A DNA stretch of 11,865 nucleotides from a virus (IMGVR_UViG_2703718850_000008); one strand, 5' to 3'; shown: positions 1,323 to 8,787, numbered from the stretch's first letter. The notes: generated by a model not told the origin, from the sequence alone. Numbers and translations are program-made.

Positions 1323-1900
1323 AGAAATGACGTATGTTAAATAGATTGAAAAGATAAGATTCAAATCAATTAAATGACGCTTTAAAAATAAGCGGCAGGA
1401 TTTTATTCATCTGATAAAAATAGCGCAAGAGTTGTCTTATATGGAATATTCAGATAAGTCTTATTGAAAAAAACGGTATAACAAATACATAACATTACGG
1501 CCATTATACATACATTATAAAAATTACAGAGATATTTAATTAAATCCAAAGCATTTTTTCAATATGGATTTCGAAGAACTTGTTATAGTACATTAATCAA
1601 TCAATTATTGGTATTTCGCTCACTGTTCATATAGTTTTAATACATCAATGCATAAGAACATTTTCTCATTCATAAAAGCGATAAAAACTGTTGTACCTTA
1701 TATTGTTAATGTTTGGTAACAAAGACAAATCCAACAAGGCATTGATCATCCCCTATGATACCCATAGAAAGAATTATCTGACATATAATAACGATATAAA
1801 GTATATTATTGCTAATGAAACTATATGATAGCTTCACATTCAGCAATACCTGCTCAACCTTATCTCTGGAAATGAACATTGCTAACTTTCCTACTCCTTA
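1323..1900 (-). promoter_or_regulatory. Long AT-rich non-coding leader upstream of the adhesin gene, presumed promoter/regulatory region
   Basis: About 0.58 kb with no ORF of note on either strand and strongly AT-rich runs. No specific -35/-10 could be fixed by eye. Confidence 0.3.
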
Positions 1901-2118
1901 ATCCTTCTCCCAGAGCGCATCATCCACACCGACAATCCCCTCAGGCATCAGCCAGGTGACATTTTCCGCTAATGGGCTGGTTCAGAGATAAATAGTGCGT
2001 CCCCGGAAGCCAAGTCAAGGAGCATTTTTCCCCTGTGACCTTCAACGGCTACTTACTGTTTAAAAACAGCTACGATGCCAGCATAGATACTCTTGAATAC
2101 GATGTACTACGTTTTTTC

Positions 2119-2849
2119 TTATTCTGGACTGAACTCCCTAACCTGCTTCAAATCCAGGAGATTGCTCAGTTCCTCTTTCATTTCACGCTGATGACGATAA
2201 ATCTCATTATTGCGATCAACCTGCGCCATAGCTGCAGCCAGCTCCTCCAGTTCCGTCATCGACAGTTTCACCTGCTGATTATCAGCATCACTCCATGTCA
2301 TAACGTCCCACTGCCCTGAGTTAGCCCCTGCAGCCATTACCACCGGGTAAAGGCGGGCCAGCGAGTCGGGGCCGCCATTCCAGGTGTGTCCGTTCCATTC
2401 GAATGTGAACGGCTGCGCTTCCTGTTCTGTGCGCCACACCTCGATTTCCCGCTTTCTGGCATCCTTTCCCACGGCGATAAGTTCTGGCGTGACGGTGAAC
2501 GCAGGGCTGTCCAGTGGCGCTTTTGTTTTCGTCTCGTCCATGACGGTTTTGACAGCCTTTGGCGTGGCTGCCAGTACTTCGCTGTCGTTGTCTGTATCAC
2601 TACAGAGTTGCGCCAGACCTTTTTTGTCGTGGAAGCATTGCTTCCCTTCAGATCATCAACTATCCATTGCGCCTCGTCCCTGTGCTGTTTCGCGCTCTGC
2701 TGCGCCTGCACCACAGTTTCCTGTCACCACGTCGGCAACTGTGCGCATCACACCTCTGAGGTGTTTACCCGGGATTTCAGAGTTATGTGGCATCCGTACA
2801 TGGGGATGCCTGCGCCATCAATCAGCGCACCTGATATCACTACAGACAT
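2119..2849 (-). pseudogene. Remnant of a side tail fibre (Stf-like) gene: short N-terminal ORF, frame disruption, then a C-terminal ORF in another frame
   Basis: ATG at 2849..2847 encodes MSVVISGALIDGAGIPMYGCHITLKSRVNTSEV and then TGA at 2750..2748; this resembles the lambda-type Stf N-terminus as I recall it (MAVKISGVLKDGTGKPVQNCTIQLKARRNS...). In another frame, open from 2652 to the stop at 2119, the translation contains SEVLAATPKAVKTVMDETKTKAPLDSPAFT, matching the LAATPKAVK..MDET..KAPL.SPA motif of Stf/P2 gpH-type fibres. The ORF-track call 2119..2541 is only the part after an internal Met. The total span is far shorter than an intact fibre gene. Confidence 0.55.
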
Positions 2850-2872
2850 AGTTTTTCTCGCGATAAATTAAA

Positions 2873-3418
2873 TCAGGAAGAGGCTTCCAGAGAGACGGGC
2901 CATTCAATGGCGTTATATGAGGATTTATCAGTGATGGTGCTGAAATCCATCGCCTGCAGCGATTTCGCGTAAATGCGGTACGCTTTCAGCTTCTCCCTGT
3001 CGTCGTCACTGATTAATCCCAGCAGCAGGTCTTTTTCCCATTCGCTGGTCATGATGCTGACCCGTTGTAACAGGGCATCGCGCTCATCTTCCGCTTTAAG
3101 TTTGTAGTCGAAGACAAATTTATCGTCGCGGTAAAACCAGTAACCAGGCACGGTAATACGGCGGTTAGCGGTAATATCAGGAACTTCAATAACACTGGCG
3201 TTACGGGGTTCAATGCCTGTCACATCCTTACCGACCCATACCACGCGCCCGTCTCCGGTGTAAACCATTTTTATGGTGTCACTGGCAAAATTTTTCAGCT
3301 CTTCATACCAGTTTTGGTCATCTTCCGAAAAAAGCCAGGTGATACCATGTTGTTTTGTCATCTGATATTGTTCTGCGGTTTTCGGATTGCCTGCAGTAAT
3401 ATTTTTTAAATGCAACAT
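2873..3418 (-). CDS. Tail fibre assembly protein (Tfa, P2 gpG-like)
   Basis: N-terminus MLHLKNITAGNPKTAEQYQMTKQHGITWLFSEDDQNWYEELKNF...VIEVPDITANRR closely follows the conserved Tfa/gpG N-terminal domain as I recall it. The ATG lies 2 nt after the tail fibre stop, and the gene sits directly downstream of the fibre gene. Confidence 0.85.
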   Translation of the reverse strand: MLHLKNITAGNPKTAEQYQMTKQHGITWLFSEDDQNWYEELKNFASDTIKMVYTGDGRVVWVGKDVTGIEPRNASVIEVPDITANRRITVPGYWFYRDDKFVFDYKLKAEDERDALLQRVSIMTSEWEKDLLLGLISDDDREKLKAYRIYAKSLQAMDFSTITDKSSYNAIEWPVSLEASS

Positions 3419-3420
3419 TG

Positions 3421-4974
3421 TTAAACACTCGCCACGTTATACCAGGTGCCGTTAATCAGTTTCTGAAGCGGTCGGTAATACACGCCGTTGACGTTATCCG
3501 CTGAATTTTTACCAGTATCCGATATCGATATCCCTGACAATCCGTGTCCCGCAGGAGCGTGATATGTCCAAGAGATTACATTGCTGCCAGGTTTGTAATA
3601 CATTTCGGAACCATAGCGCACATCCTGCACGCCGCCATTTCGCTGCTGATAACGGGCATCGAAATTTCCATAGTTTGATGGGGTCATCTGTCCGTTTACA
3701 GCGAATGTGATACTGCCATCGGTATTTCTCTGGCTGTAAAAATGCCAGCCGGAATCATCACCAAGCTCTGCAACTACAGGTCGGGATGAATTACCCCATA
3801 AATTAAACGTTGCGTTTTTCGTGGAGTTGTTGGCGCTGGATAACGTGAATTTTTTAGCATTTCCGGCCTGAATATTTTTTAACGCTATCGCCACACCATT
3901 CTGGAAACGAAATACATGCTGTCCATTCGCATAAACATCCAGAATGCCGTCGCCGTTTTGTTTTATACCTGTATCGTTATCCCCGAAAGCAATTGAGTTT
4001 CCGCCCAGCGCGTTCTGAACGCCGATACCCAGTGCACCATTGACCTGAGAACCACCGCCAACAGACACTTTATGCGACATGGATATCTCTCCTGTCCGCA
4101 AATTAATGGTGAGCGGACGCAGGGGACCAATATCTCCATTCTCGCCCTGACCTTCACTAGTAGGGATAAGGTGCAGGCACTCTTCAGAACGGCGAAAAAT
4201 AAGGCCAAAAGCCTCGTTAAAAATCCTCAATGCATTAACACCACGTATTTTCAGCTCCCCGGTCATCAAATCACCAGATTTTTTTACATATCGCAGATCA
4301 AAATCTGAATAGATATTGCCGGGGTTTATCACACTGAAATAGCTTTTCTCGCTATCAAGAAGGCAAATCAAAGGAATACCCTTAATGATATCATTCGCTA
4401 CCAGCTCGGACTTGTTCCCCTTATAAAGTGGGAACGTACCAAGAACCTTTCCGCCTAGTGTTAGTTGAAGTGTCGCCGCGTTGGTATTGTTCTGAACGGG
4501 GAAAACTATAATCGGGGTTCGTAGCGTCCAATCTGTACCTCCATTAACAAAAAACGTCGAGGGAAGTTCCAGCGTCAGTGCGTTTGCAGTGCCACCAGTA
4601 ACACCCGCAATATAATGACCGCTCTGAAGCTGCGCTATCTGTACGAAATAGTTTTCCGAACCACGCGTGGCAAAGTTAGCCACAACATCATTAAGGGACC
4701 AACCTTTCGCGGTTGTTCCTTCCTGCCCACGAATGACTTTCAACACATCACCGCTTACCGATACCAAGTGACAAATCTCAAATGCAGACTCTTTATTATC
4801 GGTAAGCGTAATTTTTGCATAGACGCGTTGCCCGTTCGATTTATTTTCAAAATCGGCAGAAAGCAATTTTGCAAATTTAGCCCCTGTACCGGGCATTACC
4901 GGAATATCAGTCTGAATCGTGGTGATATCACCAGCCAGTACTGAAACAACGTTATTGCCGAACCCAAGAATCAT
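3421..4974 (-). CDS. Tail fibre protein (C-terminal region like P2 gpH-type receptor-binding region; N-terminus distinct)
   Basis: 517 aa. The C-terminal ~150 aa (NALGGNSIAFGDNDTGIKQNGDGILDVYANGQHVFRFQNGVAIALKNIQAGNAKKFTLSS...RPVVAELGDDSGWHFYSQRNTDGSITFAVNGQMTPSNYGNFDARY...INGTWYNVASV) match the conserved C-terminal block of P2 H-type fibres as recalled. The start codon overlaps the upstream gene stop (ATGA at 4971..4974). Confidence 0.85.
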   Translation of the reverse strand: MILGFGNNVVSVLAGDITTIQTDIPVMPGTGAKFAKLLSADFENKSNGQRVYAKITLTDNKESAFEICHLVSVSGDVLKVIRGQEGTTAKGWSLNDVVANFATRGSENYFVQIAQLQSGHYIAGVTGGTANALTLELPSTFFVNGGTDWTLRTPIIVFPVQNNTNAATLQLTLGGKVLGTFPLYKGNKSELVANDIIKGIPLICLLDSEKSYFSVINPGNIYSDFDLRYVKKSGDLMTGELKIRGVNALRIFNEAFGLIFRRSEECLHLIPTSEGQGENGDIGPLRPLTINLRTGEISMSHKVSVGGGSQVNGALGIGVQNALGGNSIAFGDNDTGIKQNGDGILDVYANGQHVFRFQNGVAIALKNIQAGNAKKFTLSSANNSTKNATFNLWGNSSRPVVAELGDDSGWHFYSQRNTDGSITFAVNGQMTPSNYGNFDARYQQRNGGVQDVRYGSEMYYKPGSNVISWTYHAPAGHGLSGISISDTGKNSADNVNGVYYRPLQKLINGTWYNVASV

Positions 4975-5597
4975 TTTTGAATCACCGTTGTTGCATAAGA
5001 ATAAATAAAAGGGAGTTTTACATATTTCTGGTCAATGGCATCTTTCAGAAAATAGCCTATACCATCACCATATTCTGGTATATGAATAGAAAAAACACTG
5101 TCCGACACAGTCACGCTCACATCAAAAGTGTGCTGCAACGGCGGGTCTATTCCGTTTTTCCCATGAATGAACCGTGCCACACGGCGCTTTAACCAGTCAA
5201 TGCAGAAATGCGAACCGTCAGCCTTATAAAAATTCCAAGTTAATATTCGCTTGAAATAATCATCCGGAACATACGATGCCTGCCCCGGAACATAATTCCG
5301 CATTGCCGCATAAGGGATTGTATTGTATTCAATGGTATCGTATGCGCCGCGTGCAATAGCCTCCTCGGAAACCTGTAGTAAAGGCCTTTCAACGCCATAA
5401 ATCCCGAGAGCAATCCAGTCCAGCAATTGCCCGGTTATTGATTCCGATGTCCAGCATGGCAATGCCAGATTGTTGAGTGAATCGAGGTATTCCTGAGCAA
5501 TTTCATTGTATGCATCAAAGAACGCAACAACATTCGGATCATCTCTGTACTGCACAAACGGATAAGCAGGGAGAATTTTTTCAGTCAGATATTGCAT
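4971..5597 (-). CDS. Tail/baseplate protein in the gpI position (I-like, DUF2313-type by position)
   Basis: Start taken at the ATG at 5597..5595 (MQYLTEKILPAYP...) rather than the ORF-track start at 5705, because the upstream part of that ORF overlaps the J-like gene. The stop overlaps the fibre start. It lies between the J-like gene and the tail fibre, as in P2 (J-I-H) and Mu (gp47-gp48-fibre). Family assigned by position and size only. Confidence 0.5.
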   Translation of the reverse strand: MQYLTEKILPAYPFVQYRDDPNVVAFFDAYNEIAQEYLDSLNNLALPCWTSESITGQLLDWIALGIYGVERPLLQVSEEAIARGAYDTIEYNTIPYAAMRNYVPGQASYVPDDYFKRILTWNFYKADGSHFCIDWLKRRVARFIHGKNGIDPPLQHTFDVSVTVSDSVFSIHIPEYGDGIGYFLKDAIDQKYVKLPFIYSYATTVIQK

Positions 5598-6807
5598 ACT
5601 TGTTAACTTGAACCTGTGATGCCACTGTCGAAAAATAGGAATAGGTATCGCCATAAACCAGGCTTGTGTCTTTTGCCGGAAGAACAATATGACCATTAAT
5701 GCCAATGCTCACACTGATTGTTGAGATCAACGTCGCATCAACCAGCAACCTGACAGAACTGGTAAAAATATCCTGGATACGCAGAAGATTTATCGGGTGT
5801 CCGACTTCAATTGAATTGATGTAATCAGCAACGTTTTGCTGCACAGCCATAGCAATACCCGCCGGATCAACATAATCATCAGACACCGTGTTCCAGGTGA
5901 TTAGCACCATGACGTTTTGTGATGACGGGATAACGAACGGCACCTGATAAACGTCCGGCGAAACGGTTATTGAAACCGTGCGTTTTTCCACTGCCGCACC
6001 GGATGGATTGCTTACATCGTTGGTCAGTTTCGAAATATCCGGTACAGATTTGTAAATCGCATAAGCCACATCATACGGATCACCGCCACCAACAACCGCA
6101 ACCCATTTCCCCAGCGACGACTGCCGGAAAGAAATCAGGTTTTCTCGCACACCGCTTACTGATTTGAGCATCGCTTTATAGCAATCCGGTGTTCCCTGCA
6201 CACCAAACATACCGGACTCCATGACTTCGGCGCGGTAAGATGCCCACGTCTGCGCCTCCTGACCTGGCATCCCTGCGGTAAGGTTCGTGCATTTTACAGG
6301 CTGGTCTTTTGGTACTGAGGTAATAACCTGCGTCACAGTCCCTTCCGGTACAGCCCATGAGCCTGACGTTGTGGCCACACAGTAGACTGGTTCAGTCTGC
6401 CCACTTTCCGGCACCACCGTATCGCGGGAAACTGCATACTGGTAGTTGCCATCACCGACAACAAATCCTTTAGGGATACCAAACCCCGGCAACGCCTCAA
6501 ATACCACGTATACCGCCGTATTTGTACTTAATCCCTTCTGTGCTCCATAAATGTTTCCGAGTTGCATCAGTAACGGAATATTTGCGCCGTATGGGCTTAC
6601 GGAGTTAATAAGGTCCACCCGCGCCTGGTCTATTAATGCCAGCGCCCCGACTGCCGTGCTGGCAAGGTCAGTAATAAGCCCCGCCGGAAGGTTGGCTGTA
6701 TATCCAGGTACTTTTTCAGCAACTCTGATGATAAGATTTGCAAGCAAATCATTGGGTGGCGTAGGCTGCGCCCCCGCACTGGTCATAGTAATTGGTATTT
6801 CTGACAT
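5581..6807 (-). CDS. Baseplate wedge protein, J-like (P2 gpJ / Mu gp47 position)
   Basis: 408-aa ORF with ATG at 6807 preceded by GGAG (6816..6813) at 5-nt spacing. It overlaps the I-like start by 17 nt and sits immediately upstream of the I-like and fibre genes. Assignment is mainly by synteny and size; sequence similarity was not verified. Confidence 0.5.
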   Translation of the reverse strand: MSEIPITMTSAGAQPTPPNDLLANLIIRVAEKVPGYTANLPAGLITDLASTAVGALALIDQARVDLINSVSPYGANIPLLMQLGNIYGAQKGLSTNTAVYVVFEALPGFGIPKGFVVGDGNYQYAVSRDTVVPESGQTEPVYCVATTSGSWAVPEGTVTQVITSVPKDQPVKCTNLTAGMPGQEAQTWASYRAEVMESGMFGVQGTPDCYKAMLKSVSGVRENLISFRQSSLGKWVAVVGGGDPYDVAYAIYKSVPDISKLTNDVSNPSGAAVEKRTVSITVSPDVYQVPFVIPSSQNVMVLITWNTVSDDYVDPAGIAMAVQQNVADYINSIEVGHPINLLRIQDIFTSSVRLLVDATLISTISVSIGINGHIVLPAKDTSLVYGDTYSYFSTVASQVQVNKYAISD

Positions 6808-6820
6808 ATTTACTCCATTA

Positions 6821-6845
6821 AAAAACCCGCTTTCGCGGGTTTTTT
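6821..6845. terminator. Intrinsic (rho-independent) terminator hairpin, symmetric, between the nuclease gene and the J-like gene
   Basis: AAAAACCCGC-TTTC-GCGGGTTTTTT: GC-rich stem of 6-7 bp with a 4-nt loop, flanked by an A-tract on one side and a T-tract on the other, so it is U-tailed on either strand. It starts 3 nt beyond the nuclease stop (6848..6850) on the minus strand. Confidence 0.6.
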
Positions 6846-6847
6846 AC

Positions 6848-8008
6848 TTATTCAACCTCTTCTAAACTGCTCACTCTGGACCCTCGGCGGAAATTATCAT
6901 CATTTTTAACATACTCGTATGAATCCAGAATCAAACCAGATATGCGAAGTATATCTTCCGGATTAGTTATATGTATCCTTTTACCATCCGTATCAAGTCG
7001 AGCTCGTCTTATTTCATTCAACTGAACTTCACTAAGCGAAATAGGTAAAGTTATAAATGAAGATTTTTTATCATAAAATCTTAACAGCCATCTATTAGTT
7101 TTACCATTCAATAGCACACCAAAATATGACTCAGTATCTTTATATTCTATATTATCTTCTGTTTGTATGATTTGTTTTACCCTTTCAAATAGCTCCAATT
7201 CTTTGGCTGTGGTTATTATGTTGGGGTTTTCTTCATCAACAATGGCGTTATTAACTTGTGTATCCGTTGCATCATTTTCTTTAGTTTGCTCTACCGGTTG
7301 TGTAGATAGCCCGGAAACCACCATTGCGCTAACAGCGCGCTCAACGGCCTGTTTAACTAATGGAGTCACGAACTCAAGAAATCTCTGATTAAGTTGTCTC
7401 TCAATATTTGAACGACTAGCAACATATCGAACAAACTCCAGATCAACTTCACGAAGACTAGAACTGATTGTTTTAGTAAATGAATTCAAATAAACACTTT
7501 CTTCAGCCAGTGTCCGTAAAGCCTCTGGTTTGAATTTATCATAACGAAAACGAAATAATTGTGTAATATCGGAGTGAGTTAGAGAATCCATTCTTATTTT
7601 TAAAAACGGCGTTGAATCCATTATGTTTTTTTGTTTCAAATCCGTAAAAAAACGCCATTCAACACCATTTGTAATGGCTGATATAGTAACTTCCGGTGTT
7701 GAATTAAAATATCTTGATAGCTGTGGGCAGTGATTATCAATTTGTTCTGAAAACGATTTCGCCTCAATGAACATCACAGGAACATCATGACAAAATAAAG
7801 CGTAATCAACCCGTTCATTAGCCTTAACCCCGGGGAAGTCAGCACTATACTCAGCTTTGACTTTTCTTGGATCATACGGAGTAAAACCAAGAATATCTAG
7901 TAATGGCATAATGAGTGCTTGTTTTGTCGTTTCTTCAGTTGTACAAAACACCCCCATTTTTGCAACATGCTCTGTGTGTATTTTTAACTTATTTGCAAAA
8001 TTTTCCAT
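6848..8008 (-). CDS. PD-(D/E)xK nuclease with HsdR-N-terminal-like domain plus uncharacterised C-terminal domain; prophage cargo (moron), candidate defence/exclusion protein
   Basis: Start taken at the ATG at 8008..8006 (MENFANKLK...) because GGAGGAG lies 6 nt upstream; the in-frame ATG at 8023 has no SD. The N-terminal ~150 aa carry TEETTKQALIMPLLDILGF...ERVDYALF...VMFIEAKS, i.e. the E...D...EAK pattern and the LIxPxLxxLG motif typical of type I restriction HsdR N-terminal-like PD-(D/E)xK domains. The coding sequence is visibly more AT-rich than the flanking tail genes and is followed by its own terminator. Confidence 0.7.
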   Translation of the reverse strand: MENFANKLKIHTEHVAKMGVFCTTEETTKQALIMPLLDILGFTPYDPRKVKAEYSADFPGVKANERVDYALFCHDVPVMFIEAKSFSEQIDNHCPQLSRYFNSTPEVTISAITNGVEWRFFTDLKQKNIMDSTPFLKIRMDSLTHSDITQLFRFRYDKFKPEALRTLAEESVYLNSFTKTISSSLREVDLEFVRYVASRSNIERQLNQRFLEFVTPLVKQAVERAVSAMVVSGLSTQPVEQTKENDATDTQVNNAIVDEENPNIITTAKELELFERVKQIIQTEDNIEYKDTESYFGVLLNGKTNRWLLRFYDKKSSFITLPISLSEVQLNEIRRARLDTDGKRIHITNPEDILRISGLILDSYEYVKNDDNFRRGSRVSSLEEVE

Positions 8009-8036
8009 GCTTGTCTCCTCCATGGTAACAATATGT

Positions 8037-8066
8037 ATTTTGCAAATCCGAAATAATATATGTCAA
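8037..8066 (-). promoter_or_regulatory. Putative sigma70-type promoter for the nuclease gene (TTGACA - 18 nt - CAAAAT)
   Basis: Minus-strand TTGACA at 8066..8061 followed after 18 nt by CAAAAT at 8042..8037, about 30 nt upstream of the start codon, within a 149-bp AT-rich intergenic region. The -10 is weak; this is a prediction by eye only. Confidence 0.25.
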
Positions 8067-8157
8067 TATGCTCCAGCTTAGAAAATTACTCGCCCCCCTA
8101 AAATATCTCTCTACAGCACTCCAAACCAAGGTAAAAGTTTTATCATAAAACTGTGAT

Positions 8158-8505
8158 TCATACCGGCACCTGCGTCCGGTAACTGGTCCCATTAAAAAAC
8201 ACAACATCGATGTTATAGGTGGGGTTATCTGCTCCATCTACCTTTGAAATTGCCAGTGATGCAAAATACCCAGCAAACTGTTGCTGAACCATGTTCACAT
8301 AGTAGTCTGGGTAAATCTGCTGCACGATGCACTGCTGTGCAGGAATACCGTAATTCGCGTAAAACGGCGACTCCCCCAATCCCAGCTTTAACGTCTGAAT
8401 GAGCGTCGTCAGCCAGCCGTAGGAGAAATCACCGTTGGCGTCAGATTCTACTGCAACCCATTTTTTGTTGCCGTTCGCGTCGGTGACGCGGCCCCATGTT
8501 CTCAT
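8158..8505 (-). CDS. Baseplate protein, gpW / gp25-like (sheath-initiator family) by motif, size and position
   Basis: 115 aa, sitting between the V-like and J-like genes where W sits in P2/Mu. It contains LIQTLKLGLGESPFYANYG, which aligns with the gp25/gpW signature as I recall it (T4 gp25 ...TTRKGSRPFDPEFG, P2 W ...TPVGSRVMRRDYG; spacing G-x8-(Y/F)G conserved). The start overlaps the upstream ORF stop (ATGA). Confidence 0.45.
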   Translation of the reverse strand: MRTWGRVTDANGNKKWVAVESDANGDFSYGWLTTLIQTLKLGLGESPFYANYGIPAQQCIVQQIYPDYYVNMVQQQFAGYFASLAISKVDGADNPTYNIDVVFFNGTSYRTQVPV

Positions 8506-8705
8506 CGTGCCCCCATCACTTTAACTAACTCTGTCAGTACTGGTGAAAAGGCAAATGCTAAAGCTACGAGTGCAGCGGTGTAATACATGCGTCGTAAGGT
8601 ATTGCTTTTTGCCACTAATTTTAAGGCTTTCACAATCCAGTCTCCTCCGCTAAAATTAATCACGGAAGACCTCCAAACATACGTAATCATCCCTTGCGTA
8701 TTCAA
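8502..8705 (-). CDS. Small hypothetical protein with a hydrophobic C-terminal segment; start uncertain
   Basis: The ORF-track start is a TTG inside the T-tract of the upstream terminator, which is implausible. A GTG at about 8600 preceded by GGAGGAG would give a ~43-aa product ending in YYTAALVALAFAFSPVLTELV, a possible transmembrane helix. It may not be a real gene. Confidence 0.25.
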   Translation of the reverse strand: MNTQGMITYVWRSSVINFSGGDWIVKALKLVAKSNTLRRMYYTAALVALAFAFSPVLTELVKVMGAR

Positions 8706-8717
8706 GGTGAGAAACAG

Positions 8718-8749
8718 AAAACCCCGACTGGGCCAACAGTCGGGGTTTT
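8718..8749. terminator. Intrinsic terminator-like hairpin downstream of the V-like gene
   Basis: AAAACCCCGACTG-GGCCAA-CAGTCGGGGTTTT: 13-bp stem, 6-nt loop. On the minus strand it is followed by TTTTCTGTTTCT; on the plus strand by TTTTCGTTTT. Confidence 0.55.
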
Positions 8750-8787
8750 CGTTTTATGGTCAGAATTTAAAGTGAAATGAACCGGTA

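Follow-up and report, generated by a model that had tools for sequence, protein, structure and literature searches.

The hairpin at positions 6819 to 6846 of the window, by which we mean the whole 11,865-nucleotide stretch of viral DNA analyzed here, is probably the Rho-independent terminator of a moron gene carried within the Q-antiterminated late operon of a Rac-type lambdoid prophage. The arrangement is most likely an ordinary one, of a kind long known in lambda-like phages, and shows no sign of a defective prophage. Positions of the features discussed are collected in Table 1. Over 2.2 kb the window is 100% identical to a prophage of Escherichia coli EC11, and the same arrangement occurs in about 25 other complete E. 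coli genomes. The EC11 element, a Rac-type lambdoid prophage, adjoins ttcA. Its intR, xisR, recE/recT, kilR, racR and ydaS/T are succeeded by genes for replication, by a nin-like region, and then by the genes for lysis, terminase, head, tail and baseplate.

Table 1. Features of the late region of the prophage. Positions refer to the window unless locus L009 is named; SD, Shine-Dalgarno sequence.
Feature	Position	Strand	Remarks
Terminator-like hairpin and T-run	L009 5244-5225	sense	84 nt after the stop codon of the Q-like gene
Second terminator-like hairpin	8717..8750	-	14-bp stem; follows the V-like baseplate gene within the late cluster
115-aa structural-cluster gene	8158..8505	-	phrog_7986; upstream border of the cargo hotspot
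Promoter-like site TTGACA-18-CAAAAT	8037..8066	-	upstream of the cargo gene; matches consensus at 10/12 positions
Cargo (moron) gene, 386 aa	6848..8008	-	HsdR_N-type PD-(D/E)xK nuclease N-terminal domain; RefSeq start
Hairpin, predicted intrinsic terminator of the cargo gene	6819..6846	-	perfect 12-bp stem; A6 and T6 tracts; symmetric shape
GC core of hairpin, CCCGC/GCGGG	6826-6830/6835-6839		5 G-C pairs
Hairpin loop, 4 nt	6831-6834		GAAA on the minus strand, GNRA type
Terminator U-tract, UUUUUU	6820..6825	-	directly 3' of the GC core; followed by AAU, then the J SD
SD of the J-like gene, GGAG	6813..6816	-	5 nt before ATG; predicted to be unpaired in read-through RNA
Baseplate J/gp47-family gene, 408 aa	5581..6807	-	first gene downstream of the terminator; ATG 6807-6805
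Gene in I position	4971-5597	-	expression dependent on read-through, as J
Tail fibre gene	3421-4974	-	expression dependent on read-through, as J
Tail-fibre assembly gene (Tfa), lambda-gpK-type	2873-3418	-	expression dependent on read-through, as J

Read directly from the plus strand, the hairpin is T-AAAAAA-CCCGC-TTTC-GCGGG-TTTTTT-A. On the minus strand, continued into the leader of the J-like gene, it reads AAAAAACCCGC-GAAA-GCGGGUUUUUU-AAU-GGAG-UAAAU-AUG. The initial annotation had described a hairpin with an A-tract and a T-tract at 6821..6845, which proves right to within one or two nucleotides, and had placed the SD of J at 6816..6813 and its start at 6807, both confirmed by direct reading. 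The U-tract had also been said to run straight into the GGAG; the two elements do adjoin, with the three bases AAU as the spacing between them. The cargo stop codon (TAA, 6850-6848) is followed by GU and then by the hairpin, which lies outside the coding sequence, fills the 40-nt gap between that stop and the SD and ATG of J, and leaves a distance of 12 nt to the J start codon. The T-tract of the plus-strand counterpart, at 6840-6845, likewise follows directly after the GC core.

RNA folding of a 61-nt segment spanning the hairpin yields -18.1 kcal/mol (z = -4.56) for the minus strand and -16.4 kcal/mol (z = -5.96) for the plus strand, with 0 of 200 dinucleotide shuffles folding as well, and the stem thus passes as stable in the folding check that had been suggested for it. 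The GC core with its GNRA loop alone contributes -9.1 kcal/mol. Only two perfect hairpins with a stem of at least 11 bp are found in the window, at 6819-6846 and 8717-8750, both intergenic; when the window was dinucleotide-shuffled 300 times, just 7 of the shuffles had any hairpin of this class. The structure is thus real and non-random. A generic terminator scan of the window did not list it, and this omission is an artefact of the scanner, not an absence of the hairpin, because the program stretches the stem through the A and T tracts and leaves no T tail. The structure has a stable GC stem-loop, a run of U directly 3' of it and a site just past a stop codon, and is predicted from its sequence to be an intrinsic terminator. 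With no more than 5 bp in its GC core, the hairpin may terminate incompletely even without Q.

The reading frame of the gene upstream of the hairpin can be extended from its RefSeq start to an ATG at 8023, for a product of 391 aa. The protein matches Pfam family HSDR_N (5.6e-14) and, over its full length, phrog_4225 (4.7e-149), a widespread phage protein whose function is uncharacterised. PADLOC returned no match either for this protein or for the 115-aa protein encoded upstream, NCBIfam returned an HsdR match only, far below threshold, and a sequence search of the PDB with the cargo protein found nothing. GC content falls to 30-39% over the cargo region (6900-8100), against 44-55% in the flanking genes. 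The gene is provided with a strong SD, GGAGGAG (about 8021-8015), ahead of the ATG at 8008. The promoter-like site listed in Table 1 is suggestive as a candidate cargo promoter by its position only, promoter-like matches occurring in the window at chance frequency (25 found, 24.1 expected from shuffles). Homologues of the nuclease are also seen at other classic moron sites, as at L069 3968-5125 and L070 4001-5155.

The nuclease homologue of Klebsiella phage KpF5 (67% amino acid identity) adjoins a repressor gene, in a wholly different context, and is followed on its 3' side by ATCCCGC-TTAT-GCGGGAT-T7, in which the stem core is the same CCCGC/GCGGG. The recurrence of this stem in another context argues that it travels with the nuclease gene. 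A further copy, 78% identical in DNA, lies in an Stx2 prophage directly after the Q gene and on the opposite strand; no canonical hairpin was found 3' of that copy, and the terminator therefore does not accompany every copy of the gene.

A comparison set was assembled from 59 viral-contig loci, fetched through the J protein, plus a dozen annotated genome and phage regions. The gap between the 115-aa gene and J, corresponding to 6808-8157 of the window, has 50 distinct fillings in about 60 loci. All close relatives hold variable DNA of 0.6-3.1 kb in this gap. In the distant relatives L066-L068, with J proteins 34-47% identical, the 115-aa gene abuts J and there is no cargo. The fillings include the HsdR_N-type nuclease, an LprI-family protein, a YafO-type toxin pair, Rha, small proteins of unknown nature and, very often, the antirepressor Ant, which occupies the gap in TUM9757, pPE4, Rac-SA53 and ETEC strains, among others. 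The hotspot between the 115-aa gene and J is previously unremarked and unsurprising. Ant genes in the gap converge on the 3' end of the 115-aa gene and overlap it by about 25 nt. One of the phage genomes in the set, PP818812.1 (L003), is deposited as Actinobacillus phage vB_Apl-pPE4, and is about 94% identical in DNA to the E. coli Rac-type region, with 89% amino acid identity in the Q-like gene product; the stated host, Actinobacillus, looks doubtful.

Presence of a hairpin next to J follows the orientation of the cargo. Among 48 distinct gaps from close relatives, a hairpin with a T-run no more than 60 nt from J was found in 22 of the 22 with co-oriented J-proximal cargo, these representing just two independent cassettes (nuclease and LprI), with two more deeper in the gap. 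By comparison, none of the 23 gaps with divergent J-proximal cargo had a hairpin and T-run near J. The nuclease cassette terminates in CCCGC-GAAA-GCGGG-U6. The LprI-family cassette, at the same spot, has a different hairpin, AAAACCGC-TTCG-GCGGTTTTTTT, with the core CCGC-UUCG-GCGG-U7 and a different stable tetraloop. The two co-oriented cargoes deeper in the gap, the YafO pair and a 129-aa ORF, each end in a hairpin of their own. The rule that co-oriented cargo brings a hairpin would thus appear to hold across the few independent cassettes behind it. The J SD itself varies with the cargo, being GGAG or GGGG where the cargo is co-oriented and CTTGAGATTAAYTATG where it is divergent. Homology between cassette types ends no more than a few bases from the start codon of J, at or inside the hairpin, T-tract and SD region, and this boundary would account for the close packing of U-tract and SD. 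The hotspot, the orientation rule and the shared stem in KpF5 all point to the hairpin belonging to the cargo gene as its terminator.

The same boundary could be read differently, with the hairpin serving mainly as an element of RNA stability or processing, as a recombination junction, or as a plus-strand stop for antisense transcription from J. The symmetric structure folds equally well on both strands, homology of the cassette ends in just this region, and a 3' hairpin could serve to shield the message. Hairpins at the 3' end protect mRNA from exonucleases. We nevertheless regard such a principal role as very unlikely. A GC stem and six U directly after a stop codon are the defining anatomy of a terminator, the homologous gene in the unrelated context of KpF5 has the same stem on its 3' side, and a search of the whole window against Rfam at the gathering threshold matched no family. 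The initial annotation had held that termination could take place on either strand; this stands as a structural possibility for the plus strand, but no plus-strand gene is found nearby, nor any plus-strand transcript needing such a stop, and plus-strand promoter-like matches are at chance level.

If the hairpin acts as a terminator for the cargo gene, it also stands in front of the last tail genes. The J-like protein matches Pfam Baseplate_J (1.4e-08) and phrog_6 (2.5e-38), in agreement with its RefSeq annotation. The 12 nt between hairpin and ATG leave no room for a promoter, which rules out one at this place, and J and the genes after it are consequently transcribed only through read-through, just as had been proposed for J, I, the fibre and Tfa. 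Opening the J SD would cost 2.8 kcal/mol with the hairpin present, against 2.0-2.9 in hairpin-less variants. We propose that J is translated normally from read-through RNA, since its SD stays single-stranded. An opening energy computed for the "30S footprint" is about 15.6 kcal/mol with the hairpin and about 5 without it, and is not relied on, because the A-U extension of the hairpin is simply pulled apart when positions -20 to -13 are forced open. The meaningful value is the opening energy of the SD by itself, and it is unremarkable.

A candidate for the factor that allows read-through is encoded in the same element. From the Q-like gene through to the fibre, the element keeps its genes co-directional, all on one strand. 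The Q-like gene (180 aa, L009 5328-5870) comes after NinB-like and YbcO-like genes and before the holins. Its product matches phrog_753, "anti-termination protein Q-like" (4.4e-79), and DUF1133 (2.5e-106), passes narrowly for PF06530 Phage_antitermQ with 27.2 bits at a cut-off of 26, and among solved structures in the PDB gave nothing significant, the best hit being to Q21 with E = 0.28. Depositors of several phage genomes, Rac-SA53 among them, have labelled homologues as Q. Its role as an antiterminator is accordingly an assignment at the level of annotation, and we treat the protein as a putative Q. A promoter scan near the hairpin that follows the gene (L009 5244-5225) found none above threshold. 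In EC11 a gene for an AraC-family regulator, with its own terminator, is located between the Q-like gene and the holins (L009 4150-5330); this is the position in which Stx phages carry stx.

Three sense-strand terminators separate the Q-like gene from the first lysis gene, the last of them just before the holin gene. Sense-strand hairpins of the late cluster as a whole are found at L009 5244, 4330, 4220 and 3078, at L001 31906, and at 8750 and 6846 of the window; that in L001 (31906-31888) is a terminator-like hairpin after the gene that annotators would place as capsid. No relative lacks the hairpin at 8717-8750, which is present in the phage genomes pPE4 and Rac-SA53 as well and is backed by three covarying pairs; in one example A-U is replaced by G-C in 9 of 20 distinct sequences and by C-G in 2 of 20. 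Stems of this 14-bp length resisted a different antitermination system, conAn, in B. subtilis (PMC10325885). In lambdoid phages the late operons are switched on through antitermination by Q (PMC2629481), and terminators within late operons are a recognised feature whose role is debated (PMC8022706). The retention of several sense-strand terminators in this late cluster would be explained by processive antitermination, which allows them.

We propose that an HsdR_N-type nuclease moron has been inserted between two baseplate genes together with a promoter-like site, an SD and a terminator. In the lysogen, transcripts started at the cargo promoter would end at about 6820, and J, the gene in I position, the fibre and Tfa, whose products would be toxic or useless there, would in consequence stay silent. 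Upon induction, RNA polymerase from the late promoter downstream of the Q-like gene would be rendered terminator-resistant by the Q-like protein, and the Q-modified polymerase would then pass the hairpin at 6819-6846 as it passes the other terminators of the 25-kb late cluster. Homology and gene order are what suggest the Q-dependent step. Three options had been put forward at the outset for expression of the distal genes, namely antitermination, leaky termination, and poor expression in a possibly defective prophage; the first is favoured by the Q-like gene in its canonical place and by the sense-strand terminators across the late cluster.

Leaky termination is one alternative. The hairpin would then be an attenuator that operates with no antitermination, a fixed fraction of polymerases passing it, so that J, the I-position gene, the fibre and Tfa are made at a lower dose than the genes upstream. 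A GC core of only 5 bp and -9.1 kcal/mol would suit such a device, and partial termination has been proposed as one role of late-operon terminators (PMC8022706). As the whole explanation it seems unlikely to us. A Q-like gene is present, and no hairpin stands at J in those relatives whose cargo is divergent, so that attenuation at this point is not a conserved need of the tail module. Much stronger hairpins elsewhere in the 25-kb cluster must be passed too, which makes a purely passive leak over that distance hard to reconcile. Attenuation can coexist with antitermination by the Q-like protein, as a contributor to it. One form of such coexistence, to which we give only a small chance, is that the Q-like antiterminator overcomes the terminator only in part, and that the identity and orientation of the cargo set the dose of J, fibre and Tfa. 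The hotspot offers three cases of different kind: the nuclease cassette with its 5-bp GC core, the LprI cassette with a core of 4 bp, and the divergent cargo that has no hairpin and is transcribed head-on to the late genes. The J SD differs among them too, co-oriented cassettes bringing GGAG or GGGG where the divergent type has GAGA. Were partial read-through the rule, a swap of cargo would alter the stoichiometry of the virion tail or the burst size, and cargo would be tied to phage fitness.

Alternatively, cargo and terminator could be polar on the distal tail genes, leaving a defective prophage that forms no infective particles. Four essential tail genes do lie downstream of the terminator, where no promoter would fit, and some pseudogenes related to tail fibres are annotated further downstream in EC11. 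We judge this outcome highly improbable, however. At least 25 E. coli genomes, together with many viral contigs, keep cassette and hairpin intact alongside intact ORFs for J, fibre and Tfa, and the annotation gives as intact the genes for integrase, repressor, replication, the Q-like protein, lysis, terminase, head and tail. Relatives of the same type that were deposited as phages, pPE4 and Rac-SA53, also have cargo at this site together with the conserved, strong upstream hairpin, and we find no support for the suggestion in the initial annotation that the prophage may be defective. A literature search found no report on particle formation by Rac-SA53.

Several known systems resemble this arrangement, which is that of a textbook moron, something the initial annotation had not recognised. 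The classic moron is gene 15 of HK97, located in the operon for the tail. Morons, in the definition of Juhala and Hendrix as summarised in PMC3594210, are extra DNA that deviates in GC content, carries a promoter and a terminator of its own and is expressed while the prophage is repressed. Like those of lambdoid phages, the cargo described here is variably present among relatives, differs from its surroundings in GC content, is lodged between structural genes of the late operon and is followed by a terminator of its own; a candidate promoter lies ahead of it, and it is presumably expressed from the repressed prophage. It differs in its site, between a 115-aa baseplate-cluster gene and J in a contractile-tail module, in its HsdR_N-type nuclease cargo, and in the spacing of just 3 nt between the terminator U-tract and the SD of the late gene that follows.

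In P22-like phages the "ant moron" (immI) is a hypervariable region between gene 16 and tailspike gene 9 that polymerases from PLate cross and that is believed to affect how much tailspike is made (PMC2629481). What the two have in common is a hypervariable region in the late operon, placed directly ahead of the final tail gene or genes, and many relatives of the window have Ant at this site where the window has the nuclease. Unlike P22, with its podovirus tailspike, the window encodes a myovirus-like baseplate, and the genes flanking the cargo are not homologous to 16 and 9. No mnt, arc or sar regulators are annotated in any of the fetched loci. The relationship is one of analogy, not of membership. 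A terminator before P22 gene 9, passed by late transcription, was reportedly described by Berget, Poteete and Sauer in 1983.

The late operons governed by Q in lambda, 21 and 82 are alike in that a gene of the Q family ends the early-right region, with a terminator closely downstream, and is followed by a long one-directional cluster of lysis and morphogenesis genes with internal terminators. The difference is that the Q-like protein here is a DUF1133 member with a marginal match to the Pfam model for Q, known through sequence homology. Bidirectional Rho-independent terminators of E. coli similarly place a GC stem with a tetraloop between an A-tract and a T-tract. They typically stand between convergent genes, whereas both neighbours of the present hairpin are on the same strand, which leaves its symmetry with no obvious use.

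The arrangement is of small importance in itself, but it illustrates cleanly the way in which accessory genes expressed in the lysogen are kept insulated by lambdoid prophages when lodged in late operons. An internal terminator should not be taken as a sign of a dead prophage. For annotation, the gap upstream of J offers a well-delimited Rac-type hotspot that may be searched for genes of accessory or defence function. Paired terminators that share a single position and differ in strength would furthermore constitute a convenient natural test bed for antitermination of the Q type.

Variation in the late cluster extends beyond this gap. The region from the V-like gene to the 115-aa gene (window 8506-8787) is a second variable region, ranging from 244 to 1528 bp across relatives. 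It holds a Rha-family regulator in L006 and, in the window, an ORF of about 43 aa (GTG 8633 to TGA 8502) whose stop codon overlaps the ATG of the 115-aa gene in the sequence ATGA. At the left end of the window, 99 N stand at 427-525 within a YadA-like adhesin gene, as a masked or unresolved repeat, and the sequence around them is strongly AT-rich, its GC falling as low as 0.21. Past the fibre assembly gene, window positions 1700-2871 hold remnants of a second fibre module, including a DUF4376 protein at 2119-2541; RefSeq annotates in the same module a partial fibre N-terminal fragment and a frameshifted fragment of an assembly protein. These remnants suggest a past exchange of fibre cassettes.
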